This document shows positions 1-61,297 of a stretch of 64,000 nt of DNA, piece after piece. Origin of the DNA: an uncultured virus (IMG/VR IMGVR_UViG_3300027828_000031) (taxonomy: Duplodnaviria; Heunggongvirae; Uroviricota; Caudoviricetes); IMG/VR virus record IMGVR_UViG_3300027828_000031; one strand, given 5' to 3'. How positions within the stretch are numbered: position 1 is the first letter of the stretch; each line of letters starts with the position of its first letter. The notes under the pieces were generated by a model. That model was not told the DNA's origin. It worked only from the letters and a program-made list of their open reading frames with translations, and did not search any database. The position numbers and the translations under genes are program-made.

Positions 1-684
1 ACCTGCATGGCATTGTCTAGATGTAGTATGTGGGTAATTCAACCCATAGTTAATATCTAGGTCTGTACCTTGACTGCCCTCAATGATCACATCTGTGCCA
101 ATATCTAATGATGCGTTGATATGGTCCATATAGTCCTGTATTATTATATTTTCTAGTAATGCCCGACCCTGTTCTATAGACAATCCATATAGCCCATGCT
201 CTGGATCTTTCCTATATATGTGTAACTCTTCCATCATGTCTAGGAATAATATTGCTTGTCGCATAGCTTTCTCTGCCAATGCCGCACCACATCCTTTGAA
301 TGTAGATCCTGACTTCAATTTCTTTTTCTCATAATCGCGATGATGGTCAAGTATAACTGCCGCTCTAGGATGTATATGTACCTTACGGTCACCCAAGATA
401 TCTTTATACTTGATAATCTCATCTGCCAGAATTGATGGTGTAATTGCCGCCCCTGGACCAATTACCAATATTGCATTTGGATTGAGAATTGATGTAGGTA
501 GATGCTGTACCATTGTTGTCTCACCATCAACAACTGTGGTATGTCCTGCATTTGACATGAAATTATTGATTGCAATGAATGGTCGATTATATTGTGATGC
601 GAACCAATCTACTACCTTACCTTTCCCACATGATCCGGCTTGGGAATCCATTATTATACGCACTGTACCTAGTTTAGAAATCAT
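1..684 (-). CDS. purZ: Adenylosuccinate synthetase-family protein with PurZ-type P-loop, 3'-partial (runs off window edge; absent from ORF track)
   Basis: Manual translation from ATG at 684 (GGAGG RBS): MISKLGTVRIIMDSQAGSCGKGK...NAGHT...GSTFKGCGAA...EGSQGTDLDINYGLNYPHTTSR. Ser replaces the catalytic Asp of PurA GDEGKG. AdSS family is secure; PurZ function is less so. Confidence 0.7.
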   Translation of the reverse strand, partial: MISKLGTVRIIMDSQAGSCGKGKVVDWFASQYNRPFIAINNFMSNAGHTTVVDGETTMVQHLPTSILNPNAILVIGPGAAITPSILADEIIKYKDILGDRKVHIHPRAAVILDHHRDYEKKKLKSGSTFKGCGAALAEKAMRQAILFLDMMEELHIYRKDPEHGLYGLSIEQGRALLENIIIQDYMDHINASLDIGTDVIIEGSQGTDLDINYGLNYPHTTSRQCHAG

Positions 685-685
685 A

Positions 686-1426
686 TTATACCTCCAAGTG
701 TTTATCTAGATAATTTTTAACCGACGATTGTATTGACTCTGCATTAGTGTGATTACCCACCATTATGGTGCACCATTTAATATTGTCTAAGAAATTCAAT
801 TTGATTTCAGCTTGTCTCATGAGTCTCTCATACATATCTTGCTGTGCTATTGATGTCTCTACACCATATTTGACATCTTGATAGTCTGGTTTATTGCGTT
901 TTAAAGATTTTTCAAAGAAATCTTCTGTTCCTTTTAGATTAATAATAAGGATGTTAACATCTTGTCTTGTAGCGATATCTCCAAGTATTTGACAATAGTT
1001 CATTAGTCCATCAAATGGATTATAACCCTTATATAGTACTGCATAAACAGCTTCACTAAAATAACTGCGATCCATGATTACATTGAAACAACCCATTGCT
1101 ACTAAATTCTCGCATCGTTCTAGCGCACCTATATGATATTCAAGCCCAACTTTTTCATGTAGTTCTTTCGATATTGGTGCACTGCCAGTTAGTCTCATCA
1201 GTTCACAATATTTATAGTTATCACGCAACCAATTAGTAAGTGTCGTTTTGCCTACACCCTGAGGTCCCTCTACTATTATAATAAATGGTTTATGATCCAT
1301 ATTCATCATCTCCTTAAATTGTGCACTGCCTCCAATTCTTCGGCAGATCGGGCATTGTAATAAATTCATATTCAGGGCATTAATCCACATTGGCCTAGTG
1401 TCACAGGTACTACATATTAGATCCAT
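686..1426 (-). CDS. Deoxynucleoside monophosphate (thymidylate-like) kinase with N-terminal CxxC..CxxC
   Basis: IIVEGPQGVGKTT P-loop and IMDRSYFSEAVY motif. Confidence 0.8.
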   Translation of the reverse strand: MDLICSTCDTRPMWINALNMNLLQCPICRRIGGSAQFKEMMNMDHKPFIIIVEGPQGVGKTTLTNWLRDNYKYCELMRLTGSAPISKELHEKVGLEYHIGALERCENLVAMGCFNVIMDRSYFSEAVYAVLYKGYNPFDGLMNYCQILGDIATRQDVNILIINLKGTEDFFEKSLKRNKPDYQDVKYGVETSIAQQDMYERLMRQAEIKLNFLDNIKWCTIMVGNHTNAESIQSSVKNYLDKHLEV

Positions 1427-2114
1427 ATTCTGTCACCACCCACATTGGTAATTGATTGACAAGATCTAAGAAGATCTCTGGTAGATATTCATTAACTTCC
1501 AGTAGAGCAGGGATCATTACCTCTCTAATCTGTGGATGAGCAAATTCACTAACTGCTCGTTGGCTGAATATTTCTCGCCATTCACGCATATTGGCTGTAA
1601 TTACAATACTAGCTTTAGTTGCATTTGGTAATACCCCACGCGCATACTCTGGTGGTATACCATGATCTATCATCTTATTGTAAATGAGTTCACTCTGTTC
1701 CAGTGCTACATTTAATAGGTGTCTATAATGTTGCATGTCTGTCTCTGTTAATTTATTCATCTTAGGTGAGAGTTCAATTGATGTGCATGGGTCTATCACA
1801 TTGATTTCATTTCCAAATCTGTCACCACCATAGTTACAGAATCTAGTTGATTCCTGACTAAATGATGCTAATCTATGGCGTACCATTTCATGTGTGATAC
1901 CTCTGTCAACAATAAATTTAATACTCATGCTACAATGTTCAATTACTGAGTGATGACCCCTCTGCATAATCATTTGCACAAATCCAGATGCTGAACCATC
2001 CTTAACTAAATGTGTTGATTGATAACACTGTCTACCACAATTCTCAATGTGATTGAGTATCTTGTTACGATCTAACTCAGTTAATATCTCATGTGAAGCT
2101 GTGATTACTTTCAT
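1410..2114 (-). CDS. thyX: Flavin-dependent thymidylate synthase
   Basis: GHHSVIEH and HEMVRHRLASFSQESTR (RHRxxSxxxxSxR). Confidence 0.95.
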   Translation of the reverse strand: MKVITASHEILTELDRNKILNHIENCGRQCYQSTHLVKDGSASGFVQMIMQRGHHSVIEHCSMSIKFIVDRGITHEMVRHRLASFSQESTRFCNYGGDRFGNEINVIDPCTSIELSPKMNKLTETDMQHYRHLLNVALEQSELIYNKMIDHGIPPEYARGVLPNATKASIVITANMREWREIFSQRAVSEFAHPQIREVMIPALLEVNEYLPEIFLDLVNQLPMWVVTEYGSNM

Positions 2115-2115
2115 A

Positions 2116-2187
2116 TCAATTCCCTCCTATACAACATCCCAATAGTCCACCAAATACTACAATTCCAGCTATTACAATAAATAGCAT
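2116..2187 (-). CDS. 23-aa hydrophobic peptide (not in ORF track)
   Basis: AGGAGG 7 nt before ATG; MLFIVIAGIVVFGGLLGCCIGGN; fills the gap between neighbours. Confidence 0.55.
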   Translation of the reverse strand: MLFIVIAGIVVFGGLLGCCIGGN

Positions 2188-2199
2188 TCTATTTCCTCC

Positions 2200-2484
2200 T
2201 TATCTTCTCTCTACCTTGATTTTCAGACATTTAGTACATTTATATGTGTATTGTGTGTCTGTATTACCAGCATAATGATCTGGATTAAGCTGTTTATCGA
2301 TCATCACATAGTCATGATCTCCTTCACATATCTTCCATCTGAGTTCCTTTAAATCTCTCATAGCATTGTGTTGCCACATGTCAATTTTTGGTGACCTATA
2401 TCTACGTGTAACTAATAATATAGTCAAGAAACATATTAAGATTGTCATTAATGCTAATACAGATATGAATTTACTAATATCCAT
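2200..2484 (-). CDS. Hypothetical membrane protein with C-terminal CxxC
   Basis: N-terminal TM segment; packed in operon. Confidence 0.6.
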   Translation of the reverse strand: MDISKFISVLALMTILICFLTILLVTRRYRSPKIDMWQHNAMRDLKELRWKICEGDHDYVMIDKQLNPDHYAGNTDTQYTYKCTKCLKIKVERR

Positions 2485-2485
2485 T

Positions 2486-2896
2486 TTACTTCCTCCTTAT
2501 TATTATATCTAATTCATCTCTTAGAAACTTGAGATATGTTAGCTCATCTTGTGTTGGTTGATACCCTTTTGTATTTAGCTGTCTATAATGCCATACAAGT
2601 TCTGTTAGATCAGTATTGTTGTTAATTTTGTCGGCTGTTCTAAAATCTACCTTTATGCGCAGTAGTCTTGGTATTGCCATCGTTCTATTACGTGCTATTG
2701 ATTGCCGCGATACGTTCTGTTTAACTGCCGCCTCTGCACATGTCATTCCTTGTGTATAGTCAACAATATCGCGTCTCTCAGCTCTAGTAAATTGATCATA
2801 CTGCTGTTGTACAGACAGAGAGCCATAGGCTTTCGCCACATGACTCCTCTCTTTTGGGCTATCGAATCTCTCTTTGCGTCCAGGCTTCTTGCACAT
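2486..2896 (-). CDS. Sigma70 region-4-like HTH protein
   Basis: FTRAERR...GMTCAEAAVKQNVSRQSIARNRTMAIPRL resembles sigma r4 HTH. Confidence 0.6.
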   Translation of the reverse strand: MCKKPGRKERFDSPKERSHVAKAYGSLSVQQQYDQFTRAERRDIVDYTQGMTCAEAAVKQNVSRQSIARNRTMAIPRLLRIKVDFRTADKINNNTDLTELVWHYRQLNTKGYQPTQDELTYLKFLRDELDIIIRRK

Positions 2897-2905
2897 AATT
2901 ACCTC

Positions 2906-3565
2906 CTATAGCTCATAACATCCAAGGTCAATATCGTTCTCGGGATTATATCTACCCATAATATAATCTGGTCTGCGCTGATCAGGTTGCGGGCATACTG
3001 CCAATATACGCCATCCTTGATTCATTAATCCCTGTAAATCTTGGGTGCATACATCTGTTTTAAATCCTACTTGATTTATGTTTAACATACCGAAGTTCGG
3101 CACGTGTACTTCACATTTTTGATTGAATTCCACACTCTTATCAAATTTCCGCATAACCGATTGCATTTCGTCAAATTGGCTTTTTAATTTATCTGCAATA
3201 TCAGTGAATGCCGCAACTCGCATATCTATTGCTTTTTCGCTAGTCATTGGCAATCCTCGCATTGAGAATTTGATTTCTGGATATACTGTCATCAATACTT
3301 GTGGATCTGCGATATACTCATTTCCTGATTTAATTAGATATGAATCGCAGTATCGTGCTAATTTCTTATCCTTTTCAGGATCATTAGCAATAGCCTCATC
3401 TAACGTGGCACTCCAGCTGTAAAATTGTTGGGGTTTGCTCCATTCTCCATCTTCAAATACCTGTACTCGTTGTTCACTATCTATGCTTTCGCCTACTATT
3501 TTTGATAGCTCATCTAATTTCTCTTTACTAACTGATGTCTCACTAAATGTAATTCTTGCTAACAT
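2906..3565 (-). CDS. Hypothetical phage protein
   Basis: RBS GGAGGAG before ATG 3565; C-terminal GWRILAVCPQPDQRRPDY motif. Confidence 0.7.
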   Translation of the reverse strand: MLARITFSETSVSKEKLDELSKIVGESIDSEQRVQVFEDGEWSKPQQFYSWSATLDEAIANDPEKDKKLARYCDSYLIKSGNEYIADPQVLMTVYPEIKFSMRGLPMTSEKAIDMRVAAFTDIADKLKSQFDEMQSVMRKFDKSVEFNQKCEVHVPNFGMLNINQVGFKTDVCTQDLQGLMNQGWRILAVCPQPDQRRPDYIMGRYNPENDIDLGCYEL

Positions 3566-3620: not shown

Positions 3621-4427
3621 TTATTGCTTAATCCAATTCATTTCATCTACTAGTAAATCATGATTTGATTCAAGTTGATAGAAGTAATGTGGATTATTGC
3701 CTAAATCATTTGGCGTCCCAATTTTTGAGTTAGTTGACAATCCAATCTTTGAATTCTGCATTGCTACCCACATTCCATCAAATGGTTCCATTCCTAAACT
3801 AACTGGTGCATACAGTATAGATACTGGATTTGATCCGAAGCCATCATATTCTTGTGCTCTTTTAAATGATGATCTAATTTCGTCCCAATCACCTTCTGCT
3901 GTAAATTGTCCAGTATACATTGCTACAAAATCAGGGGCTACTACCTCAAACATCGGAATAAATGCATCATTCTGGTATGGATGCGATGTTTCTACCATTA
4001 AGGCACCATCAAATAGTTCAGGATAAAACTCTTCATATGATTGAACTATAATACCGCCGATGCTGTGTGCAAAGAAATAATTCTCTTCAACACCAATCTC
4101 TAGTACTAATTTATGTAGTGCTCTTGCTTGTCTCTGACAAGTGAGTGGTTGATCACCCAATGTAGAATCACCAAGTCCACGTCTGTCATAGGTTACTACT
4201 ACAGTATCTGCTGTTACAAACTTGGCTGGTAATTCTCCTAATGCTTCATCAGCATCTCCATAGCCCGTTACCATGAAAATTGCTTTAGTCGCACTCTCAA
4301 GACTTCCATAGACCTTGTAGCTCAGCTCTGCATTGCCATACTCGAATGTTGACTCTGTGGCAAAGCTACCCATTGACATACTGAACATTAATACCATAAT
4401 CATTAATAATGCTAACTTTCTTTTCAT
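3621..4427 (-). CDS. Secreted alpha/beta hydrolase
   Basis: Signal peptide MKRKLALLMIMVLMFSMSMGSFA; YDRRGLGDS; nucleophile elbow AHSIGG; C-terminal His. Confidence 0.85.
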   Translation of the reverse strand: MKRKLALLMIMVLMFSMSMGSFATESTFEYGNAELSYKVYGSLESATKAIFMVTGYGDADEALGELPAKFVTADTVVVTYDRRGLGDSTLGDQPLTCQRQARALHKLVLEIGVEENYFFAHSIGGIIVQSYEEFYPELFDGALMVETSHPYQNDAFIPMFEVVAPDFVAMYTGQFTAEGDWDEIRSSFKRAQEYDGFGSNPVSILYAPVSLGMEPFDGMWVAMQNSKIGLSTNSKIGTPNDLGNNPHYFYQLESNHDLLVDEMNWIKQ

Positions 4428-4458
4428 AACTGCATCTCCTTTTGTTTTCAAGTTTAAT

Positions 4459-47290: not shown

Positions 47291-50263
47291 TTAATAGTTA
47301 AATTCTTTATATTTTAGGTCGCCTCCGATTAATTTTACGAAGTCGATTATCCTATTATTTAGCCCGATCGTTTGTGGGCACTTCATTTCGATTACTGTTC
47401 CACGTACAATACATGTAAATATTACCTCAGTCAATCCTTGATGTTCATAGAACATCTTATTTAATTCTAGTATATCTTCATAATTTATTGAATTTGGTAA
47501 GTAGATGTGACATTCTGGACAATCTCTAATACCATCATTTGTCATTGGTCTAATATATAAGCCCTCAAGCGATGGTTTACCATGATAGGGCTTGCCAACC
47601 CTACATTTCATTGCTACTGGTACATTTAAGTCACTAATATATTGATGAAATGTCTTCCATAGATCCGGAAATACCGTACAACTATATTGCATAAACTCTG
47701 TTTCTACTGTAATAAAGCCCATCTTCTTGCCTTTGTTGCGACCATCCTTTGTAATAGTATGCTCATGTTTATCTACCAGATATCCTGCAATATAAACCTC
47801 AGTTCCTACTTGGAAATCAGCAATATCTTCATCTTCAAGTGAATTCCATCGATACATCTCATCACGATACCTGTCAATTGGATGCGCCGATATAAAGAAA
47901 CTAAGTACTTCATTTTCCCATTCTGCATATGTGATTGGATCTTCTTCAATCTCTTCTAAAGATGCTAGTGGTGCGTTTATCCGTATTAACTGCATTACAT
48001 CATCATATGTCGGATAATAATCACCAGCTACACGCTTCTTTTTGCGCTTCCACTTATTAATTTTATCATTAATCTCTCTACATCCAGCCGCCATGGTCAT
48101 TCTATTTGGGAATTTGTGTACTCCAGCTTGCAATAAGTCATCAAATGCGCCACACTTAACCAGCGCTTCTACTGCAGTTCCATTAACCGCGCCGCCAGCG
48201 ACCCTTAATCTAAAGTCTTCAAATGAGATATATGGTCCATTCAAGTCTATATCTTTCAGGATTGCCTCAACTGTCTTAGGTCCGATACCAGATATAGCTT
48301 GCATACCAAATCTAATAATATTCTTATCTGTCATAGTAAACTTGGTTGCACCTGATGATACCAATGGTGATAATAGATTAATCTGTTCATTATTTCTGGT
48401 CATATCTTTAATAACAAGCATCTGTTTCTTTGGTTTATTGCCAACAATCAATGAATTTAATTCTGCTGTATAAAAACAATCTGCATATTTAGATTTAGCT
48501 ATTGCACCACGTCTCATATTTTCTGCATATTCAACAGCATGAGCGCGGTTGAATCCATATCTACCAAACGTTCTGATTTGATCCTTTGCAATTTGAATAA
48601 TTGAATCTTTTTGCTGTGGAGTTAGACTCTTGGTTGTGAAATTATGTTCCCTAGCCGCATCTCCTAACCATTCTAATTCACTGTCGATTAGAGCCATATT
48701 CTTTTTACCAACTGCCTTACGTAGAATATCTGCACGCCCAAGTGAACATCCTGTCATTTGTCTAACACGATAAATAATTTGTTCTTGGAATACCATAATA
48801 CCAAATGTATCTTCTAGATATTCAGCTTCCTCAGGAAAGAGATATACTACCTTATCTTTACCAGATTTACGGTCGATCAGATGCTGTACCATAGTCTTAC
48901 CATCAATTTCTGCATCCAAAGGTCCTGGCCTATATAATGCATTTCCCATTATTATATTCAATTGTGATTGCATACCTATTTCTGGTAATAAATCATAATC
49001 AACCATTTGTGGTATAAAGCCCATCGATTCTGCTATACTATCTGCATCATAAAGATCTTTCATTAGTTGCGTAAATCCACCAGATTCGCACTGAAATATT
49101 GATTTTGTATTTCCATCTCTAAATAACTGTTTTACATCATGATCTCCTAGAGGTGTTGATTTATATGCAAATTCAGGATCATACCAGTGCTGTACTAGCT
49201 TCTCTGCGTCAAAATTAACATCTACAGTTCTAAGGCCTAATGCATCCAATTTAAGGTATCCAAAATCTTCTGCACGCATCATATCAAATTGCATCGCGGT
49301 CACATATTTACCACTACTATCTTTATAATAGATTAATGGCACATTTTCGCTCAACACCTTAGGTGATATAATAACACCAGCGGCATGGACTGATGGACTC
49401 TTCTTGAGACCATATAGTCTCTTGATAACATTTATTACTCTATCGCCATCCCACTTTGATAGGAAAGTGAATCTTACTGAACATAAAGGATTAGGATCAG
49501 TCTTGATTGCGGCAAATTTCTCCATCTGTTCATCGTTTAACATATCAATGAATTTGTCATTATCAAATAATTGACCATATGTTTGCTTATCTGCTATAAC
49601 CTCAATATCTGGATACGATATATTATGTACCGCATTTATAAAATCTTCATTGTCTAGTAATTCTTCAAGGTCACAGCCTTCACCAAATGTATCTTTGACT
49701 TCATCTATGACCACTTCTGCGACTCTGGCTGATTTTAATACGTCACTTACTACTGAATTAGCACCAAAAGTCTGAAATGTGATTATCTGGGAAACCTTAT
49801 CTGCACCATTCTTCCATGCAATATAATCTACTACAATATGGCGATAGCGTTGGGATATATCAAAATCAATGTCTGGAGGGGCTATTCGTTCTGAGTTTAA
49901 GAATCTCTCGAAAATTAGCTTATATTCAATTGGACAAAATTCATGGATACCAATGGCATAACATGCTATAGACCCACCCACAGATCCACGGCCTGGTCCT
50001 AATGGGATTACTCCATATTCGGGCAATTCATGACCGCGCAACTCACAGAATTCCTTAACACGTTTCTCATCTCTACAGAAGTCATGAATGTCCCATACAT
50101 TTAATATATAATCTTGAAAATTGTTTTCCTCTATAATTACACGTTTTTCGACTTCATATCTCTTAACTACTTCATCATTCTGTTGCCAATTCGGTCCGTA
50201 TTTCTCAACGAATCCCTTCTCGACTATGTGCATCAGGAATCTGCCTTGTTTGTTTATTTCCAT
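47291..50263 (-). CDS. dnaE: DNA polymerase III alpha (DnaE), catalytic/HhH/OB part, lacking the PHP domain
   Basis: GPGRGSVGGS, FERFL, PDIDFD, HAAG, KLDALGL, YGFNRAHA, HP, OB fold. Confidence 0.93.
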   Translation of the reverse strand: MEINKQGRFLMHIVEKGFVEKYGPNWQQNDEVVKRYEVEKRVIIEENNFQDYILNVWDIHDFCRDEKRVKEFCELRGHELPEYGVIPLGPGRGSVGGSIACYAIGIHEFCPIEYKLIFERFLNSERIAPPDIDFDISQRYRHIVVDYIAWKNGADKVSQIITFQTFGANSVVSDVLKSARVAEVVIDEVKDTFGEGCDLEELLDNEDFINAVHNISYPDIEVIADKQTYGQLFDNDKFIDMLNDEQMEKFAAIKTDPNPLCSVRFTFLSKWDGDRVINVIKRLYGLKKSPSVHAAGVIISPKVLSENVPLIYYKDSSGKYVTAMQFDMMRAEDFGYLKLDALGLRTVDVNFDAEKLVQHWYDPEFAYKSTPLGDHDVKQLFRDGNTKSIFQCESGGFTQLMKDLYDADSIAESMGFIPQMVDYDLLPEIGMQSQLNIIMGNALYRPGPLDAEIDGKTMVQHLIDRKSGKDKVVYLFPEEAEYLEDTFGIMVFQEQIIYRVRQMTGCSLGRADILRKAVGKKNMALIDSELEWLGDAAREHNFTTKSLTPQQKDSIIQIAKDQIRTFGRYGFNRAHAVEYAENMRRGAIAKSKYADCFYTAELNSLIVGNKPKKQMLVIKDMTRNNEQINLLSPLVSSGATKFTMTDKNIIRFGMQAISGIGPKTVEAILKDIDLNGPYISFEDFRLRVAGGAVNGTAVEALVKCGAFDDLLQAGVHKFPNRMTMAAGCREINDKINKWKRKKKRVAGDYYPTYDDVMQLIRINAPLASLEEIEEDPITYAEWENEVLSFFISAHPIDRYRDEMYRWNSLEDEDIADFQVGTEVYIAGYLVDKHEHTITKDGRNKGKKMGFITVETEFMQYSCTVFPDLWKTFHQYISDLNVPVAMKCRVGKPYHGKPSLEGLYIRPMTNDGIRDCPECHIYLPNSINYEDILELNKMFYEHQGLTEVIFTCIVRGTVIEMKCPQTIGLNNRIIDFVKLIGGDLKYKEFNY

Positions 50264-50864: not shown

Positions 50865-51105
50865 TATTTCTCTCCTTATATGGTATTATATCATGTGTTA
50901 CACCTGTATTGTCAGTAATAGTCAAATATATATCATCAATACTAAATGTTTCACTAGTATCGTCAACGATTGCTTCGATTGATTCTCTTAAGCATTTAAT
51001 ATTATTGTCGTTTATTGCCTTACCCTTATATTGCTGTAGCACCGTTCTGATTTCTCCCTCTATATCTCTATCGTCCGTTGGTGCTATGGTTATATTTAAT
51101 CCCAT
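50806..51105 (-). CDS. Hypothetical protein between the dnaE halves
   Basis: RBS GGAGGAG. Confidence 0.6.
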   Translation of the reverse strand: MGLNITIAPTDDRDIEGEIRTVLQQYKGKAINDNNIKCLRESIEAIVDDTSETFSIDDIYLTITDNTGVTHDIIPYKERNNDEHNVRFVQKETEANSES

Positions 51106-52097
51106 TGTTCCACTCCTCCATTCTCAAACCACTCTGGCACACTGAATTTTGGTGTAAAGATTTCCTTTGATGGTTTTAACACATTGCCATCACATCTGTT
51201 GGCTATAATCATGGTATTTTTAATATATTCATCTTTAAACGATGTTCTCAACTCATTTGCAGACAATATATGATATCCTTTCCCTTTAAAGCCAAATGTA
51301 TTAGGGTGGTCAGTTTCCTTATTAAAATTGATTGCTAGGAGATTTGCATGTGCATCCATATCATCTTTATATCTATAGTGCGCGTCTGTAGCCGCAATAA
51401 TCGTAATACCCATTGATTCTGCTATGCCTACCTTCTGGTCGTTAACAGTATTCTCATCAGGTATGTCATGATTATGATATTCTAATATAAAATCATCACC
51501 AAATCTAGACTGGAACCAGTTTAACATTGCCATGGTACCGCCAAAATCTTCCTTGAGTATCATTTGGTCAACTGGTCCACCAATACAGGCTCCACTCCAG
51601 ATAATGTCGTCTCCATATTTGTCAATCAATTCCAAATCAATACGTGGCTCATGATAGAATCCTTCATAATATGAGTACCACATCAATGAACATAGATTCT
51701 GGTAGCCCTTCCAATTCTTCGCCCATGCATTAAGATGATAATATGCCTCACCACGCCTCTCAAATGATTTATAATGTCTGGAATTAATCATGAGACCATT
51801 GTTCCATACCCAATCATCCTGATTATAATCTTGTTTTGGCTGTGCCGCCATATAGAATTCACATCCTATAATATGCTTCATCCCAAATGCATAAGCCGCC
51901 AGTGCTAAATCACCATGTGCCGACATAACGCCATGATCTGTGGCAGTTATGATGCCATGTCCCCGTTCTTCTGCTATTTGAATAATATCTTCTTTAACTT
52001 TCTTGGGTTCATCATGATCCAGTGTTCTGATCATACCGTCTTTATTAGAATATTCCGTATGTAGATGCATATCCACGAAATCAATCTTATTCTCCAT
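51096..52097 (-). CDS. dnaE: Stand-alone PHP domain of DNA polymerase III alpha
   Basis: HLHTEYS..DG, TDHG, GCEFY, HLNAWAKN..GYQNL, ACIGG, TDAHY. Confidence 0.9.
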   Translation of the reverse strand: MENKIDFVDMHLHTEYSNKDGMIRTLDHDEPKKVKEDIIQIAEERGHGIITATDHGVMSAHGDLALAAYAFGMKHIIGCEFYMAAQPKQDYNQDDWVWNNGLMINSRHYKSFERRGEAYYHLNAWAKNWKGYQNLCSLMWYSYYEGFYHEPRIDLELIDKYGDDIIWSGACIGGPVDQMILKEDFGGTMAMLNWFQSRFGDDFILEYHNHDIPDENTVNDQKVGIAESMGITIIAATDAHYRYKDDMDAHANLLAINFNKETDHPNTFGFKGKGYHILSANELRTSFKDEYIKNTMIIANRCDGNVLKPSKEIFTPKFSVPEWFENGGVEQWD

Positions 52098-52839
52098 ATA
52101 TTACATCCTCCCAATCTGGCACCGTGTTGTCGATATGGTCATATAACCTTGCTTTCAGTTTCTTCGTGAGTTGTATTATCCTTTGCTTAGAAATGTCAAG
52201 TTCTCTGGCAGTAGTAGTCTGAGCTTTGCCTTCAATAATAGATTTTAGAATATATTCATCTCTTTCACTTAAATCCATATTATTTACCGCCAGCTTCACT
52301 GCTAATAGTACACCCTCAATATGTTTGTCACGCTCATTGTTAATTATTTCTTCTTCTGCTGTAGGATATGCTGATTGGTTGTTTACATTTGGATGCCTTC
52401 TTGTATATGTTTCGAATGTCTCTTCATTAGACATGTCATCATATTCCTTCATTAATTGGTATCTCTTATTATCTTTAACTTTACTTTGATAAATATATCT
52501 GACTCTACTGTCCAAGTGTGATTGAATGAAATTATTATATGTGGCTTGTCCATCAATCTCATATTTAAATTTAGTATAATGCCACATCCAATATCTAATG
52601 TCTGCTAGTATATCATTCCAGCCAATAATCACTGTGCCGTTGTTATACTTAATAGACCATTTCTTGCAGATCGTCAATAATAGTGGCTTAAATATATCGA
52701 GGAGGAAGGTCATTCCCTCCTCCTCCAAGACAGCATCTCCAGACTGAACCTTGACTACCGCATCATTAATATTATCAATTTTTTCGCATTCGCCTCGTTT
52801 CAGTCTAGTCATATTAGTTACCCGTACTTCCGAAGCCAC
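52087..52839 (-). CDS. Sigma70-family RNA polymerase sigma factor
   Basis: Region-2-like N-half; region 4 LSERDEYIL...TARELDISKQRIIQ. Confidence 0.75.
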   Translation of the reverse strand: MASEVRVTNMTRLKRGECEKIDNINDAVVKVQSGDAVLEEEGMTFLLDIFKPLLLTICKKWSIKYNNGTVIIGWNDILADIRYWMWHYTKFKYEIDGQATYNNFIQSHLDSRVRYIYQSKVKDNKRYQLMKEYDDMSNEETFETYTRRHPNVNNQSAYPTAEEEIINNERDKHIEGVLLAVKLAVNNMDLSERDEYILKSIIEGKAQTTTARELDISKQRIIQLTKKLKARLYDHIDNTVPDWEDVIYGE

Positions 52840-53332
52840 TGCAATTTCGCTGTGTAATGCCTAAATTATCATGGCAATTAACTTCTATTATATTTGGTGT
52901 ACACTTTTTATGAATTACTAATTGTACTAATCTATCACCATGTTTTATCATAATCTTTTTATCACTTAAATTTGCAATACAAGCAATCAATTCACCTGTA
53001 TATCCTTCATCGATTATTGAATCACCAGATATCATTAATTTCTGATTGGTTGATGATCTACATTCTAATCTACCATAATAGCCCATAGGCATCCTAACAA
53101 ATATACCAGTTGGAATGTTGACCATTTGTTTCTTTGGTAACCAGAAGTACGGCATTGTGTCCATACTTGGTGAAGGCATGATCCCTAATGCAAAACCATC
53201 TGCTTGATGGATTCCAATATGCTCTTGTACTATAGATGGCAGATCATAGCCCACATCACCTTGTTTCTTGACATGTATTAAATCAAATTCTCTAGCCTCT
53301 TCCGTTCTGAACACCTTCAAATCTTGCATCAT
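52814..53332 (-). CDS. dut: Trimeric dUTPase
   Basis: GYDL, RSS, IIDEGYTGE, GDRLVQ, GFGSTG. Confidence 0.88.
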   Translation of the reverse strand: MMQDLKVFRTEEAREFDLIHVKKQGDVGYDLPSIVQEHIGIHQADGFALGIMPSPSMDTMPYFWLPKKQMVNIPTGIFVRMPMGYYGRLECRSSTNQKLMISGDSIIDEGYTGELIACIANLSDKKIMIKHGDRLVQLVIHKKCTPNIIEVNCHDNLGITQRNCSGFGSTGN

Positions 53333-55270
53333 CTATTCCTCCTCATGCCAATCTTTACAGACTCTTAATTCTGCATCATAATTTCGTCTAGTTGGGTTCC
53401 AACATTCTTCAAATGAATAATACCCTATCACTCGATTCATTGCTGTTTTAATTGGTGCTCCACAATCAGGGCATTCTCTAGACTGTCCGATTATGTTTGT
53501 GTGTCCATTTATACATTTACCTGTTCTAAAACAGATCCCAACATGATTAACACCAGATTGAGCACACAATTTAAATAGTTGATACATCATTTTTGCTGAA
53601 TGCAGTCTATCTTCAAAGTTCAAATGAACAATACCACCACCTGAAATTATGCTCATGAATCTACCTGCGATATCAATTCTATCGAAGATATCAACATCAG
53701 CAATTAATGGAACATATTGATTACTATAAAGATTGGTTGCTATGTCATATCCAAATGTTCTATCTTTCTTAACTAGTGTAACACAAGTTTGTTCACCTGG
53801 AATTTCTTCAATGTTATAAGCCCAACCATCTTCTTTGCGATATTCCTTTGTCTTTTCACGCATGAATGAGAATATATCTTGAGCAATCTCGGTGCCGTTA
53901 TCATCTATGATATCATATCCAAGATATTCTACCATTTCCTTAGCACCCGTAATACCAAATGTTGAGAACATCGTATCCAATGAGAACCAGCCCGTACCGC
54001 CGCCTTCACGATCTCCGAAGAACTTGAGATATTTAGGTGTACGATCAATTCTCTTTTGTAAGACATCTATTCTATGAATCTTTAATAATCTTCGTGCTGT
54101 ATCCATTCTGTGTGTTAATAGCTCTTCTATAGACCCCTGACCTGCATTTGAGTCTAATGCTAATCTAGGTAGATTGATTGTTACTACTCTATGAGATCCA
54201 ATATTAACCCCGCCATTTCCAAAGCTATCTGGTGACATATCCATATCATCTAGATCATTCTCATATCTACAACACATTGCCAACTTGGATTTCTTGCCAA
54301 AATGGATATTGAAATTACCCAAATTCATATTGGTTTCTGCCGCCCACTGTGCGAACTCTTCATCGATGAATTCTTTCTTATCGCCGATCGTGATGTTCAT
54401 TGTTACTACTGGAAATCTGTATGGGAATCCAGTAATTGGATCACCATTTTTGAACCACTCACAGAATATCTTCTGTAATTCCATGATATAGTCTATATCT
54501 GGCTTGCTACCATCAGGATAGAATACGTGACCAAATAGGCTATTTAGGCCAGATTCATCATAAATACCGAGATTGACGAATGGAGATTCTCCTTCAGATC
54601 TTGATGCGTCATTGAAAAGGACAACCAATGATTGATAATCTTGGATGATTTCTTTCCTATGGGCTGGATTTCTAGGGTCGAGGTTCTCTTTTTGACAGAA
54701 ATGTGCATACCACATGAAGAAGTCTGATGGTGCTGTTGCTCCTGCAAATTGTCTTGACATATCTCCAATGAGCTTGTCGACCTGTGAGATAAATGATCGT
54801 CTGTGCTTCGCTGGTGTATTAATTGATGGTCCATAAGGTCTCCCTTCCACTACCATGCTTGTTAAACTGAATGCATAGCAATACGGTAGTTGTAATTTCT
54901 TGCCGTGTGCGTCATGGAAGTATAATTCTCCGTCCCAAATCGCCGCAATGTCTCTGTTTGCTTGGTCAATACCATATCTCTTCACACCATAATACCATAA
55001 TGTATGATATCCCAATAACTTCATAGGTCCATTCATAAGATGTGCAGAGTATGTTGTTGGATCTTGTATTTCTGTAATATTGCTGTTCTGATCTTGATAG
55101 ACATCTGATAGTCTATTTTGAAAAAATTCTTTACTTGAATTACCGATATCTAATTGATTGGGTGCAATCCCTGTTAATTTTAGTAGATCTAATCCTTTAC
55201 TACTTTGTGTATATGAATCATATAATAATTTAAATTCTCTCTCTACAGTAATACCAGCTATTCTTGACAT
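53333..55270 (-). CDS. nrdD: Anaerobic (class III) ribonucleoside-triphosphate reductase
   Basis: YFHD, PYC, FPVVT, MCCR, TINLPR, CxxGH..CPDCG, RVIGY; RBS AAGGAG before ATG 55270. Confidence 0.93.
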   Translation of the reverse strand: MSRIAGITVEREFKLLYDSYTQSSKGLDLLKLTGIAPNQLDIGNSSKEFFQNRLSDVYQDQNSNITEIQDPTTYSAHLMNGPMKLLGYHTLWYYGVKRYGIDQANRDIAAIWDGELYFHDAHGKKLQLPYCYAFSLTSMVVEGRPYGPSINTPAKHRRSFISQVDKLIGDMSRQFAGATAPSDFFMWYAHFCQKENLDPRNPAHRKEIIQDYQSLVVLFNDASRSEGESPFVNLGIYDESGLNSLFGHVFYPDGSKPDIDYIMELQKIFCEWFKNGDPITGFPYRFPVVTMNITIGDKKEFIDEEFAQWAAETNMNLGNFNIHFGKKSKLAMCCRYENDLDDMDMSPDSFGNGGVNIGSHRVVTINLPRLALDSNAGQGSIEELLTHRMDTARRLLKIHRIDVLQKRIDRTPKYLKFFGDREGGGTGWFSLDTMFSTFGITGAKEMVEYLGYDIIDDNGTEIAQDIFSFMREKTKEYRKEDGWAYNIEEIPGEQTCVTLVKKDRTFGYDIATNLYSNQYVPLIADVDIFDRIDIAGRFMSIISGGGIVHLNFEDRLHSAKMMYQLFKLCAQSGVNHVGICFRTGKCINGHTNIIGQSRECPDCGAPIKTAMNRVIGYYSFEECWNPTRRNYDAELRVCKDWHEEE

Positions 55271-55280
55271 ATTTTCTCCT

Positions 55281-55751
55281 TTAATAACGGATCTCATATA
55301 GTCCACCGTCACGACCTCTCCTCTTAAAGGCCTTTTGGTTTTCTGATGATGGAAATCCGTCTCTTTTTTGATTGTGTCTATACATACCATATTTAATAAA
55401 ATCACATATATTTTCAAGATTTGTTCCAATTGATATACGTGTATATCCAGTATATAATGCTATGTTTCTTTTATAGATATTTCTGAGTTCTGATGCTAGC
55501 AGAAATAGATCAGCATATGATTGGTCAAGTGGTTCTCCGCCTAGAAATACTATCCAATCATTATCGGCAATATTTACAGTCTTTACAATATCATCTATTG
55601 ACATCTCAATGCCATCAAATGATTGTAGTTCTGGATTTTGGCAATCTTTACATCCAATATTGCATCCCTGAAACCATATTGTAGTTACTGCTTCATCCGT
55701 GAATGGTTTACCGTTAGTTATATCGAATTTATCTATTCTCGCTATCTTCAT
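55281..55751 (-). CDS. nrdG: Class III RNR activase (radical SAM)
   Basis: FQGCNIGCKDCQNP, LGGEP, YTGY. Confidence 0.92.
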   Translation of the reverse strand: MKIARIDKFDITNGKPFTDEAVTTIWFQGCNIGCKDCQNPELQSFDGIEMSIDDIVKTVNIADNDWIVFLGGEPLDQSYADLFLLASELRNIYKRNIALYTGYTRISIGTNLENICDFIKYGMYRHNQKRDGFPSSENQKAFKRRGRDGGLYEIRY

Positions 55752-56275
55752 TGGATTGCCTTCTTTATATCAAATACAACATCTTGTAATGCCTGATTTC
55801 CATTGACTACGATCTTTGGTGAGATTTGTCTGATCATCGGCAATGTGACTTCATTATATTTCTCAAATCTGTTAACAATGATTGATAGTATATCATCATT
55901 TCTTTTTCTTTGTGATAGTCGATATCCGCAGACCTCCAGATCTGTGTCAACCAAGATAATAATTGGCTCTGAATTTGTAATGCTCTTTAAGAACAGATAT
56001 TGATCATAGAATCTTGGAAATCCATCTAATACTATCATATTAGCTGTATTGGATGCCGCCACTATTTTAGTCTGTATCTGTGTTCTCATCGCCATTTCAT
56101 TTGCTAGTCCGCCTCTAGCAAGACTATCCGCTGTATTTGTGTCGATTTTTGCTAATTCTCTTGCAATATCACCTGATGATATGTAAATTCCTCCAAGGTC
56201 TGTTGAGAGTTGTCTGCCTATGGCTGATTTACCTGATCCAGGTGGTCCTACAATTACTAAAACTTGTGTATTCAT
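55748..56275 (-). CDS. adk: Adenylate/nucleoside monophosphate kinase
   Basis: GPPGSGKS, ISSGDIAR, LDGFPR, RNDD. Confidence 0.85.
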   Translation of the reverse strand: MNTQVLVIVGPPGSGKSAIGRQLSTDLGGIYISSGDIARELAKIDTNTADSLARGGLANEMAMRTQIQTKIVAASNTANMIVLDGFPRFYDQYLFLKSITNSEPIIILVDTDLEVCGYRLSQRKRNDDILSIIVNRFEKYNEVTLPMIRQISPKIVVNGNQALQDVVFDIKKAIQ

Positions 56276-56357: not shown

Positions 56358-59033
56358 CTATTGTTCATTGAACATAAACTTCGTTTCTCCAATTCTTTGT
56401 GTGGGACCGTCCAAATATAAGCTAAATGGTATATCACGTTCACCATGTCTATTCTTATCAATTAATCCCTTAATATTCCCTACTACAGGTAGTGTGCCCT
56501 CATTAATCTCATCTTCTGTTCTACGCTTTAATGTAATATAGTTATCTGCATCTTGTGCTATTTCATATGATCCTGCACCATGTTCGGCACGTGCATCATC
56601 TTCGATCAGTGCTTGTTTGCTTAACTGCGACACCAATACGACAGCCACCTTGAACTCATTCGCTAATTGCTTCCATGCCTTTGAGATCAGTCCAAGCTCC
56701 TGATATCGCTGTTTCTTAGTGCCAGATATCATTTGCAATTGAACGTAATCGATAAAGATAACTTTAGCTTTGTATTTCATTATATGTCTACGAGCTATTG
56801 ACAATGCCTTTGATAAATCATGACCCTGATCTGCAATGTGTAATTTTGATTGTGCTAGTAATGCCGCCGCACCCTCTACTGATCTAAGTTCTTCCTGATC
56901 TACATGACCAGTACGTAACTTCTCTGATTCTACACCTGAGAGCATCGACATAAATCTAGTCGTACATTGTTCCTTAGTCATCTCAAGCGATAGCCATAAT
57001 GAATCTTCCAATTCAGTTTCTGGCGCTGTTATTGAAATATATTCTGCCCAGTTTTGGCATGTTACAGTCTTACCAACTGTTTGATTTCCAGCCACTACAG
57101 TGAGTGTAGCATCATCTAGTCCTAGTAGTGCTTTAGACATCCCATAGAATTTTGGTCCTAAATGTACTCCAACAAACTCAACAGGATTCTGTACTTTGTC
57201 ATAGAATTTCTCCATCCAATCCTGAGCTAACTTGAGTCCATCATCAGATTCTCTGTCTATATTGTTTTTATAGACTGTACTATAGATATCTGTAATACCT
57301 TGGTCTAATGTCATACGTGGATCTTTAGTTAGATCATTAAGTGACATTTCCATCATATTGATCTGTTGTTTTGCCGCTCTACGTATTAGCTTGTCTTCGA
57401 TATCGTCTACGAAAAATTCTACATCTCCATGTTTATCTAATAATTCTTTAATCCATTCATCAGTCAATATTTGATCCATACTTAAATTCTTAATAATTGT
57501 CCGTAGTTCTAGCACATCTTTATGACCATATTTTTGTAGTATGTCAAATAAATTACGATGTCTTGATAAATACCAATCTTGAGGATCAAATTGCTGTGAC
57601 ATATCAAGACAGAAGTCTTCATCTCTTAACATCTCACCAAGTACAATCTCTTCACCTTCGGGTGATGCCAATGATATATCATTAGTACATGCCACAGCCA
57701 AGTAATAATCCTCAACTTCATCGGTTGATATGCCTATCTTCGATGCCACATGTTGAATCATAATCTTCTTCATGAACGGATCATTGACTGCATTTATTAA
57801 CTCTTGAGCATCCCACATGAAATCAATATTCATAGTCTGCTTATTTAGTTCAGTGTATCTATCTGACATCTCCTCGTATAGAATATCAATTAGATATTGT
57901 GTTACATATACTGATGAGTCTAGTACTTCTTTGATTGCATCAAATCCATGCTGTCCAATATAGTCATCTGGGTCATAGCCCATAGGCAATAATGCTATTT
58001 TCAATCGGACATCTGTTTCGAATTTAAGATAATCTCGTGCTATCTTTTTAGTTCTAATACGACCAGCACTGTCACCATCAAATAATAATATAAGTGTATG
58101 GATTCTATACTTATCACACATATCATAAGTACGTTTATTAATTGTAGTTCCTAATGCACCAAATGTTGGAAATCCTGCTTGACTGACTTTCATAGTATCA
58201 GGTGCACCCTCAACTACAACCGCTTGGTTATTGTAATTATGCAACTTTCTGCGCATTATATCAAAGCCAAAGAATCTGTCTTCCTTACTATAGAGTGGGT
58301 GATCATCATCTGCGCCAATATATCTCTGCCCTTTCGTAGCGGCTTCAAATGGTCTCGATTGAAAATACCTCATCGCACCCCATGGTGTTGTTACTGGGAA
58401 TAGAATTGCATTATCAAATTGTTTCTTGGCTGTTGATCTGGTCTCTACTAAATGAAGTTCATTTTTGAATTGTGCTATACACCCATCCCAAGTTGTTACA
58501 CGTCCCATATTCATTCGGTCTGCATATCCAATTTTGTATTCCATGAGTGTATCTATTGTAAAACCACGACCTAGCATATAATCCATCGCTTGTGGATTTG
58601 AAAATAACTTCTGATGTGCAAATTCTCTAGCCATTCCATTATTTGCATATAGTTCGTTTTCGTATTTCTCTTCTTCTGTTAATTCTGCCATATATGGTTG
58701 TAGATCAAACCCCATAATATCAGCCGCAATAAACATAGCTTCAATATGTGATACTTTTTTAACTTCCTCAACATATTGGATATGATCACCACTTGCTCCA
58801 CACCCAAAACAGTAATAGAATCCTTTCTGTGGTTGCACAGTGAAGGATGGTGTTGTATCTTTCTCACCATCATCTCCTGTAGGATGTATATCCATATTAC
58901 ATCGCTTCTTATAGAGTTCATCACTGACACGTATCATAGCTGATTTATCTACGGCTTCTATAAATCTGTTTAATGGCATGAAGCTACATAATTGGTCACG
59001 CAAGCCCTGTATGTCTCTTAATTTACCCTGCAA
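56358..59033 (-). CDS. Fused DnaG primase-DnaB helicase
   Basis: TPSF..YCFGCG Zn finger, VEG/FDGDSAG/DPD TOPRIM; GKT, SLEM, IDYVQL, SQL, QDAD, KNRHG. Confidence 0.92.
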   Translation of the reverse strand: MQGKLRDIQGLRDQLCSFMPLNRFIEAVDKSAMIRVSDELYKKRCNMDIHPTGDDGEKDTTPSFTVQPQKGFYYCFGCGASGDHIQYVEEVKKVSHIEAMFIAADIMGFDLQPYMAELTEEEKYENELYANNGMAREFAHQKLFSNPQAMDYMLGRGFTIDTLMEYKIGYADRMNMGRVTTWDGCIAQFKNELHLVETRSTAKKQFDNAILFPVTTPWGAMRYFQSRPFEAATKGQRYIGADDDHPLYSKEDRFFGFDIMRRKLHNYNNQAVVVEGAPDTMKVSQAGFPTFGALGTTINKRTYDMCDKYRIHTLILLFDGDSAGRIRTKKIARDYLKFETDVRLKIALLPMGYDPDDYIGQHGFDAIKEVLDSSVYVTQYLIDILYEEMSDRYTELNKQTMNIDFMWDAQELINAVNDPFMKKIMIQHVASKIGISTDEVEDYYLAVACTNDISLASPEGEEIVLGEMLRDEDFCLDMSQQFDPQDWYLSRHRNLFDILQKYGHKDVLELRTIIKNLSMDQILTDEWIKELLDKHGDVEFFVDDIEDKLIRRAAKQQINMMEMSLNDLTKDPRMTLDQGITDIYSTVYKNNIDRESDDGLKLAQDWMEKFYDKVQNPVEFVGVHLGPKFYGMSKALLGLDDATLTVVAGNQTVGKTVTCQNWAEYISITAPETELEDSLWLSLEMTKEQCTTRFMSMLSGVESEKLRTGHVDQEELRSVEGAAALLAQSKLHIADQGHDLSKALSIARRHIMKYKAKVIFIDYVQLQMISGTKKQRYQELGLISKAWKQLANEFKVAVVLVSQLSKQALIEDDARAEHGAGSYEIAQDADNYITLKRRTEDEINEGTLPVVGNIKGLIDKNRHGERDIPFSLYLDGPTQRIGETKFMFNEQ

Positions 59034-60229: not shown

Positions 60230-61297
60230 CTATAGATATTGATTCCTAAGTTCTAGTGCATCTGTGATATTCTTCAATGAATTGTCAATTGATTGCATCG
60301 TTTTATTTAGTTCTTCAATCATTTGGAATAAGTTAATATTTGTGCCAATATTACCACCACCGCCACGTGCTCCGCGTCTCTTAATCTCAGCATCAACTGA
60401 TTCCTGTAATATCTGCGGTGGTCCTGAATAGTCTAACCCAGCCAATTTCCTCATCCATAGTGTATCTCTAGACGACCTAATTCCATCCTCTTTAGCTTTC
60501 TGGCTGTAATAGATATACTTATATTCAGTATATAGATGCTCAGGTATTGGATATTCTTCGATATTACCATTGAGTGTCATGAAGTAATCGCATGGCAATG
60601 ATTCAATAGACTCAAATAAATAAAGCCAGAATGTGTCCGCACTATCATCGCCGTAATACCATGTACTATTCATATATGGCGGATCCAAGAATACTAGATC
60701 ACCACCCTCGATATTATGCATTTGTAGAAATAAAAATTTGCTAACCTCATCATTATAGATAGATATTCTATCTTTAAATGGCTCAAGTGCATTATGCCAT
60801 GCCATTATATTAGATTCTACTGTGGATGGTGTTGCCATTCTTTTACCCCATGATGATACAAACTTGCCATCTTTATATTTAACCTCACCACGCATGGAAC
60901 CGCGAATTAAGGCATATAATAGATGATGTTTGTTGATATTATTGAGATTTATGATCTCGTCATCAGAGTCTGATACATCATTGTTATATTCAGCCTTTAC
61001 AGCTTCATAGAATAGTCCGCTCATATTGATAATATTATATAATCGTTCATAGTTATCTATGATCTCACTAGGTCTATATACTAGATCTCTCCATAATGCC
61101 ATCAGATCTTGGTTGATGTCATTGATTATAATATTGCCATTTATTTTGACTCTAGATAATATCTCTCGTAATTCTCCACCTGACCCGATAAATGGAATAA
61201 TCAGATTGTTGACTTCTGCTGGGAAATTATCTACGATATCTGCCGCCTGTTTCCGTTTAGATCCTGCCCATGGGATCCATCCTTTATATGCCATCAT
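60230..61297 (-). CDS. Dam-like (D12 class) DNA adenine methyltransferase
   Basis: PWAGSK, PFIGSG, INDIN, FLDPPY. Confidence 0.85.
   Translation of the reverse strand: MMAYKGWIPWAGSKRKQAADIVDNFPAEVNNLIIPFIGSGGELREILSRVKINGNIIINDINQDLMALWRDLVYRPSEIIDNYERLYNIINMSGLFYEAVKAEYNNDVSDSDDEIINLNNINKHHLLYALIRGSMRGEVKYKDGKFVSSWGKRMATPSTVESNIMAWHNALEPFKDRISIYNDEVSKFLFLQMHNIEGGDLVFLDPPYMNSTWYYGDDSADTFWLYLFESIESLPCDYFMTLNGNIEEYPIPEHLYTEYKYIYYSQKAKEDGIRSSRDTLWMRKLAGLDYSGPPQILQESVDAEIKRRGARGGGGNIGTNINLFQMIEELNKTMQSIDNSLKNITDALELRNQYL

Follow-up and report, generated by a model that had tools for sequence, protein, structure and literature searches.

The uncultured tailed phage recorded as IMG/VR IMGVR_UViG_3300027828_000031 (Caudoviricetes), of which a stretch of 64,000 nucleotides was analysed (the window), carries at the left end of that stretch the gene of a short adenylosuccinate synthetase (AdSS) in which serine replaces the catalytic aspartate. 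By its Ser signature, its ATP-type base pocket and its marker residues the enzyme is, as judged from sequence, of the PurZ type, and we consider it reasonably probable that this is a Z-genome phage, with 2-aminoadenine (Z; dZ as the deoxynucleoside) in place of most of its adenine. An original prediction, made from the letters of the window, had proposed such a phage with an unusual, family C replicase. Here we describe the synthetase and the completed genome, the enzymes that could accompany Z synthesis, and the readings that compete with a Z genome.

The synthetase gene and closure of the genome

The minus-strand open reading frame (ORF) at window 1–684 comprises 228 codons from an ATG start in the ORF listing and runs past the left window end. 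Its translation, MISKLGTVRIIMDSQAGSCGKGK...NAGHT...SGSTFKGCG...EGSQGTDLDINYGLNYPHTTSRQCHAG, reads as originally quoted, and the gene is real. PF00709 (adenylosuccinate synthetase) aligns with residues 11–228 over profile positions 2–240 of 416 (E 3.9e-32, 112 bits, cut-off 27), and PHROG 1211, annotated as '2-aminooxy adenylosuccinate synthetase', matches at 8.3e-44. A GGAGG Shine-Dalgarno sequence lies 6 nt ahead of the ATG (684–682), within the 3' end of the upstream gene.

The remainder of the gene was recovered from two other viral sequences. Bases 1–44122 of viral record G001 correspond to window 19879–64000 (99.995% identity) and its last 123 bases to window 1–123 (100% identity) and, because G001 overlaps both window ends, the map closes at 67,253 bp with only 3,253 bases outside the window. 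Residues 229–386 of the synthetase are encoded just outside the window on this circular map, and an intact and identical 386-aa ORF occurs on a second, independent contig (L005:10001-11161), which spans the ThyX gene, a kinase-like gene, the synthetase, the gap genes and the RusA and UvsW genes. The datZ and mazZ genes had been guessed to lie left of position 1, but apart from the end of the synthetase the gap holds only an SSB-like gene and three ORFs of unknown function (60, 350 and 75 aa), and neither Pfam nor PHROGs found a nucleotide hydrolase in its 3,253 bases. The RusA-like gene beside the gap lies almost entirely within the window (63310–63939). Megablast of window 1–3000 against named phages gave no match.

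Catalytic signature and base pocket

Ser18, in the motif DSQAGSCGKG, stands at the position of the catalytic Asp13 of PurA, which bears out the signature from which the prediction started. It is invariant in all 79 aligned relatives and present in 122 of 124 length-filtered representatives. At the catalytic position the window protein and the PurZ and PurZ0 references read G-S whereas PurA reads G-D.

The C-terminal residues that govern NTP specificity, to which the original prediction had also pointed, form a pocket of the ATP type (PurZ) and not of the GTP type (PurZ0 or PurA). In the part of the synthetase beyond the window, N330-F331-A-Q333 together with Y334 make up this base pocket, for which N305, F306 and Q308 of S-2L and F295 and Y298 of phiVC8 served as reference residues. 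The motif is NFAQ in the window protein and S-2L, NF[AC]N in other PurZ references, S/T-F/M-x-D in PurZ0 (Ghobes, Pumancara, Hiyaa) and T-K/L-L-D in PurA. NFAQ thus stands in place of the guanine-binding Asp of PurZ0, and Ser18 and NFAQ in place of the Asp13 and GTP-binding (N/T)KxD of canonical PurA. The aspartate loop, TTVTKK.RRV (TTVT being residues 298–301), is as in phiVC8, and the PurZ-specific loop insertion, which pushes a Val/Ile towards C2', is present.

Of the substrate-contact sites of S-2L PurZ given in the available text of PMC8342488, 24/30 are identical in the window protein, and all seven contacts that discriminate PurZ from PurA (S23, S131, T273, V275, N305, F306, Q308) are in the PurZ state. 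Moreover, for the 12 marker residues that distinguish AdSS on contigs experimentally enriched for dZ (with restriction enzymes, the metaGPA approach) from those on unmodified contigs, as defined in the accessible part of bioRxiv 10.1101/2025.10.22.683976, the window protein shows the PurZ state at eight, the PurA state at none (0/12), and neither state at four (A16, A144, K283, E309). The best NCBIfam model is that of PurZ, NF038379, at 183.4 bits.

Database matches, fold and phylogeny

In a single-sequence search of the PDB the window enzyme matched Pyrococcus horikoshii PurA (8.9e-32), phiVC8 PurZ (2.3e-28) and S-2L PurZ (2.5e-26), with E. coli PurA (~1e-21) and PurZ0 (1.9e-16) lower, while a profile of the 79-sequence family gave phiVC8 PurZ as top match (315 bits), followed by P. 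horikoshii PurA (290), S-2L PurZ (275) and PurZ0 (196 bits). A word-indexed search yielded 449 homologous proteins at E<=1e-10, and an exhaustive search of 50%-identity representatives yielded 5,026 at E<=1e-3 and 222 at E<=1e-30. The subfamily comprises hundreds of clusters at 50% identity, is widespread in the environment, and includes bacterial chromosomal genes next to or fused with NUDIX hydrolases.

The AlphaFold model of the synthetase (pLDDT 93.3, pTM 0.92) was compared with known structures by Foldseek. P. horikoshii PurA, the PurZ of phiVC8 and S-2L, and PurZ0 scored about equally (TM by target 0.82–0.88; 6TNH, 7ODX and 5K7X at 0.84–0.88) and long PurAs lower (0.68–0.74). Since the former values are about equal, the short-type fold is confirmed and the choice between PurZ and archaeal PurA is left undecided by fold, which was dropped as a discriminator.

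A quick tree of 80 rows and a careful maximum-likelihood tree of 71 rows (LG+G4, with three canonical PurAs as the root; all references and one in three of the 124 length-filtered representatives were included) agree with each other. In the latter, the Ser-type enzymes form a clade of 64 of the 71 rows with 100/100 support on a long stem, which holds all verified PurZ and PurZ0, so that the anticipated placement with these enzymes and away from canonical PurA was upheld. The PurZ0 references fall in a group of seven rows (98/92). A larger one of 57 rows (100/97) contains the PurZ of phiVC8, S-2L, SH-Ab 15497 and PMBT28, the enzyme of the Bacillus phage vB_BpsS-140, and the window's family, itself a group of 12 rows (100/96). 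Outside the Ser-type clade lie canonical PurA and four short Asp-type AdSS of jumbo DnaE phages.

These results bear on the simplest alternative, that the gene encodes an ordinary auxiliary PurA which boosts AMP formation from IMP during infection. Many AdSS of phages do lie beyond the PurZ group: in the available text of PMC12884076 phage AdSS homologues number 481, as against 151 in the PurZ group, and jumbo DnaE phages carry the short Asp-type AdSS mentioned above. However, the window protein has lost both the catalytic Asp and the GTP-binding Asp, shows no marker in the PurA state, and falls outside the canonical and Asp-type clades with full support. We regard this alternative as very improbable.

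The jumbo-phage enzymes (L138-L142, L164) are about 330 aa long with GDEGKG or GDCGKG at the catalytic motif, and in L141 and L164 (G337, about 177066–178460) the gene directly adjoins a Dut gene; they are a separate, non-Ser lineage of phage AdSS. A single Asp-type representative, P0155, was tried as a stand-in for archaeal PurA and rejected, since it proved to be a variant within the same subfamily.

Conservation in the phage family

The complete relatives G007 and G008 share 37 and 40, respectively, of the 100 ORFs of the window genome. A Ser-type gene is present in all six family genomes with a completeness of 93% or more, and those members that lack it are fragments (32–66% complete). The synthetase is, accordingly, a core gene of a family of contractile-tailed phages of 63–69 kb.

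Replicase and nucleotide-pool enzymes

The sole DNA polymerase, both in the window and across the complete 67,253-bp genome, is a family C DnaE, as had been claimed for the window, and DnaE is also present in both complete relatives tested (G007, G008) and in vB_BpsS-140. The chromosome of E. coli is itself replicated by a DnaE-type polymerase. When E. coli expresses a Z-cluster, Z enters its chromosomal DNA, according to the available text of PMC8342488, and since this chromosome is DnaE-replicated a family C replicase can use dZTP. In the surveyed portions of the literature the characterised Z-genome phages replicate with family A DpoZ or PrimPol and keep dATP in check through DatZ or through DutZ/DmtZ. 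Neither PMC12884076 nor bioRxiv 10.1101/2025.10.22.683976, in the accessible parts, uses the terms 'DnaE', 'Pol III' or 'polymerase III', and searches for literature joining PurZ with DnaE, PurZ with Nudix, or 2-aminoadenine with Bacillus phage returned only unrelated matches, judged by the listings for the latter two.

A trimeric dUTPase-family enzyme encoded close to the polymerase genes is a candidate dATP/dGTP (and dUTP) diphosphohydrolase. In a Dut tree of 27 rows, a branch with 100/95 support separates nine Duts from phages that carry a Ser-type AdSS from 16 Bacillota Duts and two Duts of phages lacking the Ser-type enzyme. The nine are Ghobes DutZ, the Duts of Pumancara and Typher, and those of six DnaE phages, the window's among them. 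The two are the only non-Z phage Duts in this tree, which has long branches, and the group was defined only once an earlier tree had shown it at 99/93. Among 50,697 phage records the best E-values were those of vB_BpsS-140 (2e-25) and Microbacterium phages (~1e-20), and the best matches are Duts of AdSS-carrying phages. Two of the Dut-matching phages are also among the PurZ matches, and Typher has a cluster of pol I, PurA-like and dUTPase genes. The DutZ of PurZ0 phages is Dut-like and hydrolyses dATP and dGTP, and dutZ occurs in 98/98 PurZ0 genomes, as given in the available text of PMC12884076. The original prediction had named the lack of any dATPase/dGTPase partner as a reason to abandon a Z genome, an objection that falls away because the Dut-like gene groups with characterised DutZ. 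An insertion of 8–35 aa after Dut motif 1 was considered as a Z marker and rejected; its length varies within the family and it is absent from Ghobes DutZ.

An adenylate-kinase-like enzyme is a candidate dZMP kinase. Its gene is conserved in G007, G008, two further family members (G310, G317) and vB_BpsS-140, and was not found in three distant complete DnaE phages. It matched only two of the 50,697 phage records at E<=1e-6: outside the family it accompanies a PurZ-like gene in vB_BpsS-140, a distant phage, and is almost absent from other phages. The second match, a weak one (E 3e-7), is in a 635-kb uncultured phage without AdSS.

A proposed pathway

From the observed gene content, motifs, phylogeny and conservation we infer a pathway in which each chemical step is conditional. 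The synthetase would join aspartate to dGMP, with ATP or dATP, to give N6-succino-2-amino-2'-deoxyadenylate, which host PurB would convert to dZMP. The phage adenylate-kinase-like enzyme, together with host kinases, would then yield dZTP. The DutZ-related Dut-like enzyme would both supply dGMP from dGTP and lower dATP, and the phage PHP/DnaE family C replicase would write Z opposite T.

Judged from the genes present, the combination of a PurZ-type synthetase with a Dut helper of the PurZ0 style and a polymerase of a family so far unconnected with Z-DNA would be new. More tentatively, and at somewhat less than an even chance, these phages could represent a third, independently assembled Z-DNA architecture, found in Bacillota phages of both contractile and siphoviral type and built from an ATP-type PurZ, a DutZ-like hydrolase, an adenylate-kinase-like dZMP kinase and PHP/DnaE, with a synthetase subfamily that is widespread and has been captured by bacterial chromosomes. 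If the Z-genome reading is true, the range of Z-DNA would widen to another host phylum, other virion types and another polymerase family, and the question would arise of how adenine is excluded without DatZ. A family C replicase that tolerates or prefers Z would also be of interest for synthetic genetics.

Evidence weighing against a Z genome

The observations that weigh against this reading concern both the identity of the enzyme and the genome around it. Six contact sites of the enzyme are unlike S-2L (A16, H219, T220, I256, S259, A372), with Ala at position 16 where PurZ has Phe or Tyr. Its score with the PurZ model lies below the curated cut-off of 300, unlike those of the controls phiVC8 (397) and Ghobes (346), and NF003295, the model of short AdSS of the archaeal type, gives nearly as much at 168 bits (cut-off 368). 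The predicted fold fits P. horikoshii PurA as well as PurZ, and no named archaeal short PurA is among the tree rows; PMC12884076 mentions four archaeal Ser/Gly sequences. Moreover, the approximately unbiased (AU) test does not reject a tree in which the clade of 26 rows that holds the window enzyme branches outside the remaining Ser-type enzymes (delta lnL 26.3, p 0.13), so the bracketing by verified enzymes is not secure.

Four Ser-type relatives, 48–52% identical to the window protein, are encoded on contigs of small metagenome-assembled genomes of Bacilli and Clostridia, and the three with enough flanking sequence lie in ordinary bacterial chromosomal surroundings. These paralogues show A-G-S, NFAQ and the insertion, and in the tree they form the sister group of the phage family (joint clade 100/94). 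A NUDIX hydrolase gene adjoins the paralogue at L020:9537-11062 and is fused to that at L022:5353-6894 (513 aa). Separately, an NT5C-like fragment and a second NUDIX gene were seen nearby in L022, and a PurB gene 4.5 kb upstream of the paralogue in L021 (9989–11065).

The bacterial genes suggest a different reading, by which the subfamily has another substrate or role shared with the NUDIX-linked paralogues, acting for example on another (deoxy)purine monophosphate supplied by a pyrophosphohydrolase, and the phage genome contains no Z. The sister relationship, the NUDIX genes among ordinary metabolic genes, the sub-threshold PurZ score, the Ala in place of the aromatic residue near the 2-amino group and the deep placement left open by the AU test all speak for it, and the NUDIX link in particular keeps a different role of the subfamily open. 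However, every biochemically tested Ser-type member uses dGMP, according to the available text of PMC8342488 and PMC12884076. The NUDIX link is also compatible with the PurZ reaction, because a NUDIX enzyme gives NMP from NTP, the function that MazZ, DUF550 or DutZ provide for PurZ, and a fusion fits this. In addition, a canonical PurA (469 bits) was also found in one of the four paralogue genomes, the one that could be judged, only the Ser type being found in the other three. Among 301 sampled Bacillota genomes the Ser type occurred in the centre genome alone while 54 others matched with canonical long PurAs, and this rarity (1/301) suggests that the gene was acquired horizontally. We hold a role apart from Z to be quite unlikely. 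On the more tentative reading of a third Z-DNA architecture, the capture of NUDIX-PurZ modules by chromosomes would point to dZ nucleotide synthesis in some bacteria.

For the genome, one difficulty in assuming full replacement of adenine is the lack of the established accessory genes. DatZ, MazZ, DUF550, DmtZ, DpoZ and PrimPol were not found in the complete genome with Pfam (93 ORFs), by tblastn on the 67,253 bp at E<=10, or with home-made hidden Markov models over 595 six-frame ORFs (best E 0.073), and the classic Z accessory genes were not found by tblastn in G007, G008 or 30 kb of vB_BpsS-140. The classical Z-cluster, with DatZ and MazZ/DUF550 beside purZ and a family A DpoZ or PrimPol, is not seen here. 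Because these genes were not found, dATP removal rests on the candidate Dut-like enzyme, and the tree that links this enzyme to DutZ has the narrow sampling given above. Furthermore, the phage encodes a Dam-like N6-adenine DNA methyltransferase, of a family present in 0/5 known PurZ/PurZ0 phage records, and this makes it less likely that the phage has lost adenine entirely.

The same observations favour an intermediate reading, in which the synthase is a working PurZ-type enzyme and Z is only partial or conditional, or the purine dNTP pools are merely reshaped. E. coli carrying Z genes reaches 14–44% substitution in plasmids, as given in the accessible text of PMC12944874. Nevertheless, the synthetase is core to all six near-complete family genomes, whereas the Dam-like gene, which lies between the UvsW and primase-helicase genes, is not conserved in the relatives (it was not found at the equivalent place in G007 and G008); the DutZ-related enzyme could clear dATP; and S-2L is fully substituted with a non-selective polymerase, as stated in the available text of PMC8342488. 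We regard partial or conditional Z as unlikely and retain extensive replacement of adenine as the preferred reading.

Avoidance of restriction sites was also tried as a proxy for Z, and palindrome depletion was dropped as a discriminator because the controls do not separate. In the window genome the 4-mer palindromes made of G and C only are the most depleted (CCGG 21/52, GGCC 35/84) and those containing A/T are near neutral. GATC is avoided by the verified Z phage phiVC8 (0.03) and by the family members G310 (0.22) and G008 (0.41), and G328 (L174-L180), a DnaE phage without AdSS, eliminates GCGC (0/152). The same pattern, with A/T-containing palindromes near neutral, holds for G007 (L037-L040), which shows near-total loss of CCGG (0/53) and GGCC (1/73), and for vB_BpsS-140 (L009, L012), which has CCGG 0/30, GGCC 0/33 and CGCG 0/24.

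Genome content, host and other genes

The 67,253-bp genome was annotated with Pfam on 93 ORFs and with PHROGs on 56 ORFs, and the genes that bear on nucleotide metabolism and replication are collected in Table 1. The synthetase stands in a run with a dNMP-kinase-like gene and ThyX, as had been described, and is translationally coupled to the kinase-like gene, for which no homologue was matched in G007 or G008. The replication module further holds a DNA ligase, RNase H, HIRAN and UvsW.

Table 1. Genes for nucleotide metabolism, replication and DNA modification in the window.
Gene product	Position	Strand	Evidence and conservation
Ser-type (PurZ-type) adenylosuccinate synthetase homologue, N-terminal 228/386 codons	1..684	-	PF00709, PHROG 1211, motifs, trees
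P-loop dNMP/thymidylate-kinase-like protein, N-terminal Cys-rich segment	686..1426	-	PHROG 761 'thymidylate kinase' 1.3e-15; weak Pfam/NCBIfam kinase matches
ThyX, flavin-dependent thymidylate synthase	1410..2114	-	PF02511 8.1e-42; conserved in G007, G008
DnaE-type family C DNA polymerase catalytic subunit	47291..50263	-	PF07733 6e-53, PF17657, PF14579; conserved in G007, G008, vB_BpsS-140
Stand-alone PHP protein, split N-terminal part of family C polymerase	51096..52097	-	PF02811 1.5e-27; same split in vB_BpsS-140
Dut-like trimeric dUTPase-family enzyme, DutZ-related	52814..53332	-	PF00692 5.5e-18; five dUTPase motifs; tree
NrdD, anaerobic ribonucleoside-triphosphate reductase	53333..55429	-	PF13597 4.4e-80; conserved in relatives
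Adenylate-kinase-like NMP kinase	55748..56275	-	PF00406 9.7e-15; TIGR01351 79 bits (cut-off 168)
DnaG-type primase fused to DnaB-type helicase	56358..59033	-	Pfam; conserved
Dam-like D12-class N6-adenine DNA methyltransferase	60230..61297	-	PF02086 5e-19; accessory gene

Structural and lysis genes encode a sheath C-terminal domain, baseplate J, a Mu gpP-like protein, a gpA-type terminase, a BhlA holin and an Amidase_2 lysin; the sheath and baseplate J genes confirm the contractile-tailed virion that had been proposed. The proposal of a Firmicute (Bacillota) host also gained support: the host is probably a member of the Bacillota, and probably anaerobic, as suggested by the BhlA holin, a Cu_amine_oxidN1 protein, and the nearest named phage, which infects Bacillus. 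No tRNA genes were found in the genome. The phage comes from marine-sediment metagenomes: when words were sampled from a stretch of 9 kb, four such runs contained 80% or more of them, all as contigs, which cannot reveal base modification.

Several other genes, all on the minus strand, were observed. Between RNase H and HIRAN, and conserved in G007 and G008, window 46266–46772 encodes a protein of 168 aa that weakly matches the BT0820-family HAD-type phosphatases (45.9 bits, cut-off 165; PHROG 1238), which could be a DNA-end or nucleotide phosphatase. ORFs of unknown function at 11120–11956 and 14011–14943 match the same region of G008 and are probably paralogues; for the former no family and no usable Atlas match was found. 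An alpha/beta-hydrolase (esterase/lipase-like) with a hydrophobic, signal-like N-terminus, encoded at 3621–4475 within the early/nucleotide gene block, is probably the product of a moron gene. The conserved 278-aa ORF at 9596–10432 may encode a sigma factor of the phage, since Sigma70_r2 is found in its nearest Atlas cluster (score 0.95, a lead only). Conserved ORFs of unknown function were also considered as hidden hydrolases and set aside, 11120–11956 for want of a usable match and 9596–10432 for its resemblance to sigma-70 region 2.

Comparison with known systems

PurZ is also called DgsS, succino-amino-deoxyadenylate synthase. The window enzyme shares with the PurZ of Vibrio phage phiVC8, cyanophage S-2L, Acinetobacter phage SH-Ab 15497 and Salmonella phage PMBT28 the short AdSS fold, Ser at the Asp position, an N-F-x-N/Q pocket, the TTVT loop, the insertion after the R-V/I motif and a common clade (100/97). 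It differs in having only 30–32% identity with verified PurZ, a score below the NCBIfam cut-off and Ala16 for the aromatic residue, and the phage differs from the verified PurZ phages in lacking DatZ, MazZ/DUF550 and DpoZ/PrimPol and in replicating with DnaE.

The PurZ0 systems of actinophages (Gordonia phage Ghobes; Arthrobacter phages Wayne and Pumancara) consist of PurZ0 and DutZ, with or without DmtZ and DUF5664, together with DpoZ-1. The window system resembles them in having no DatZ or MazZ and in its Dut-family enzyme that groups with DutZ, but it has no guanine-binding Asp, belongs to another clade, lacks DmtZ and DUF5664, and has DnaE and not a family A DpoZ.

P. horikoshii PurA (5K7X; NF003295), the best single-sequence PDB match and the best Foldseek match (E 8e-30, TM 0.88), has the same deletions relative to long PurA as the window enzyme, but differs in its catalytic Asp, its GTP-type motif and its aspartate loop, GTVTGRRRRVG.

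The nearest named relative of the synthetase is that of vB_BpsS-140 (MH884512), a cultured siphovirus of Bacillus pseudalcaliphilus from Lake Elmenteita (39.6% identity by tblastn, 41.5% in the alignment), whose genome was sequenced on PacBio according to PMC6375668. Both phages have the same replication order of UvsW helicase, primase, adk and dut, followed by the split PHP and DnaE genes; between dut and PHP lies a sigma-factor gene in vB_BpsS-140 and a 250-aa ORF without detectable similarity in the window. It differs in being a siphovirus with other structural genes, in a synthetase that belongs to a neighbouring sub-branch with NFAN, and in that searches with the ThyX and NrdD proteins of the window detected no homologue. 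The MH884512 record lists no feature over the 3.6 kb (48891–52495; L012:1892-5496) that encode PHP and DnaE; the window PHP and DnaE proteins match this stretch by tblastn at 7.5e-49 and 1.75e-98. The available text of PMC6375668 names dnaE_1, dnaE_2 and adk in vB_BpsS-140 and does not note the significance of its purA gene, and the phage may already be among the PurZ phages in Fig. 5/Table S3 of PMC12884076. Since it is in culture, vB_BpsS-140 is a phage in which the prediction of a Z genome replicated by a family C polymerase can be checked.

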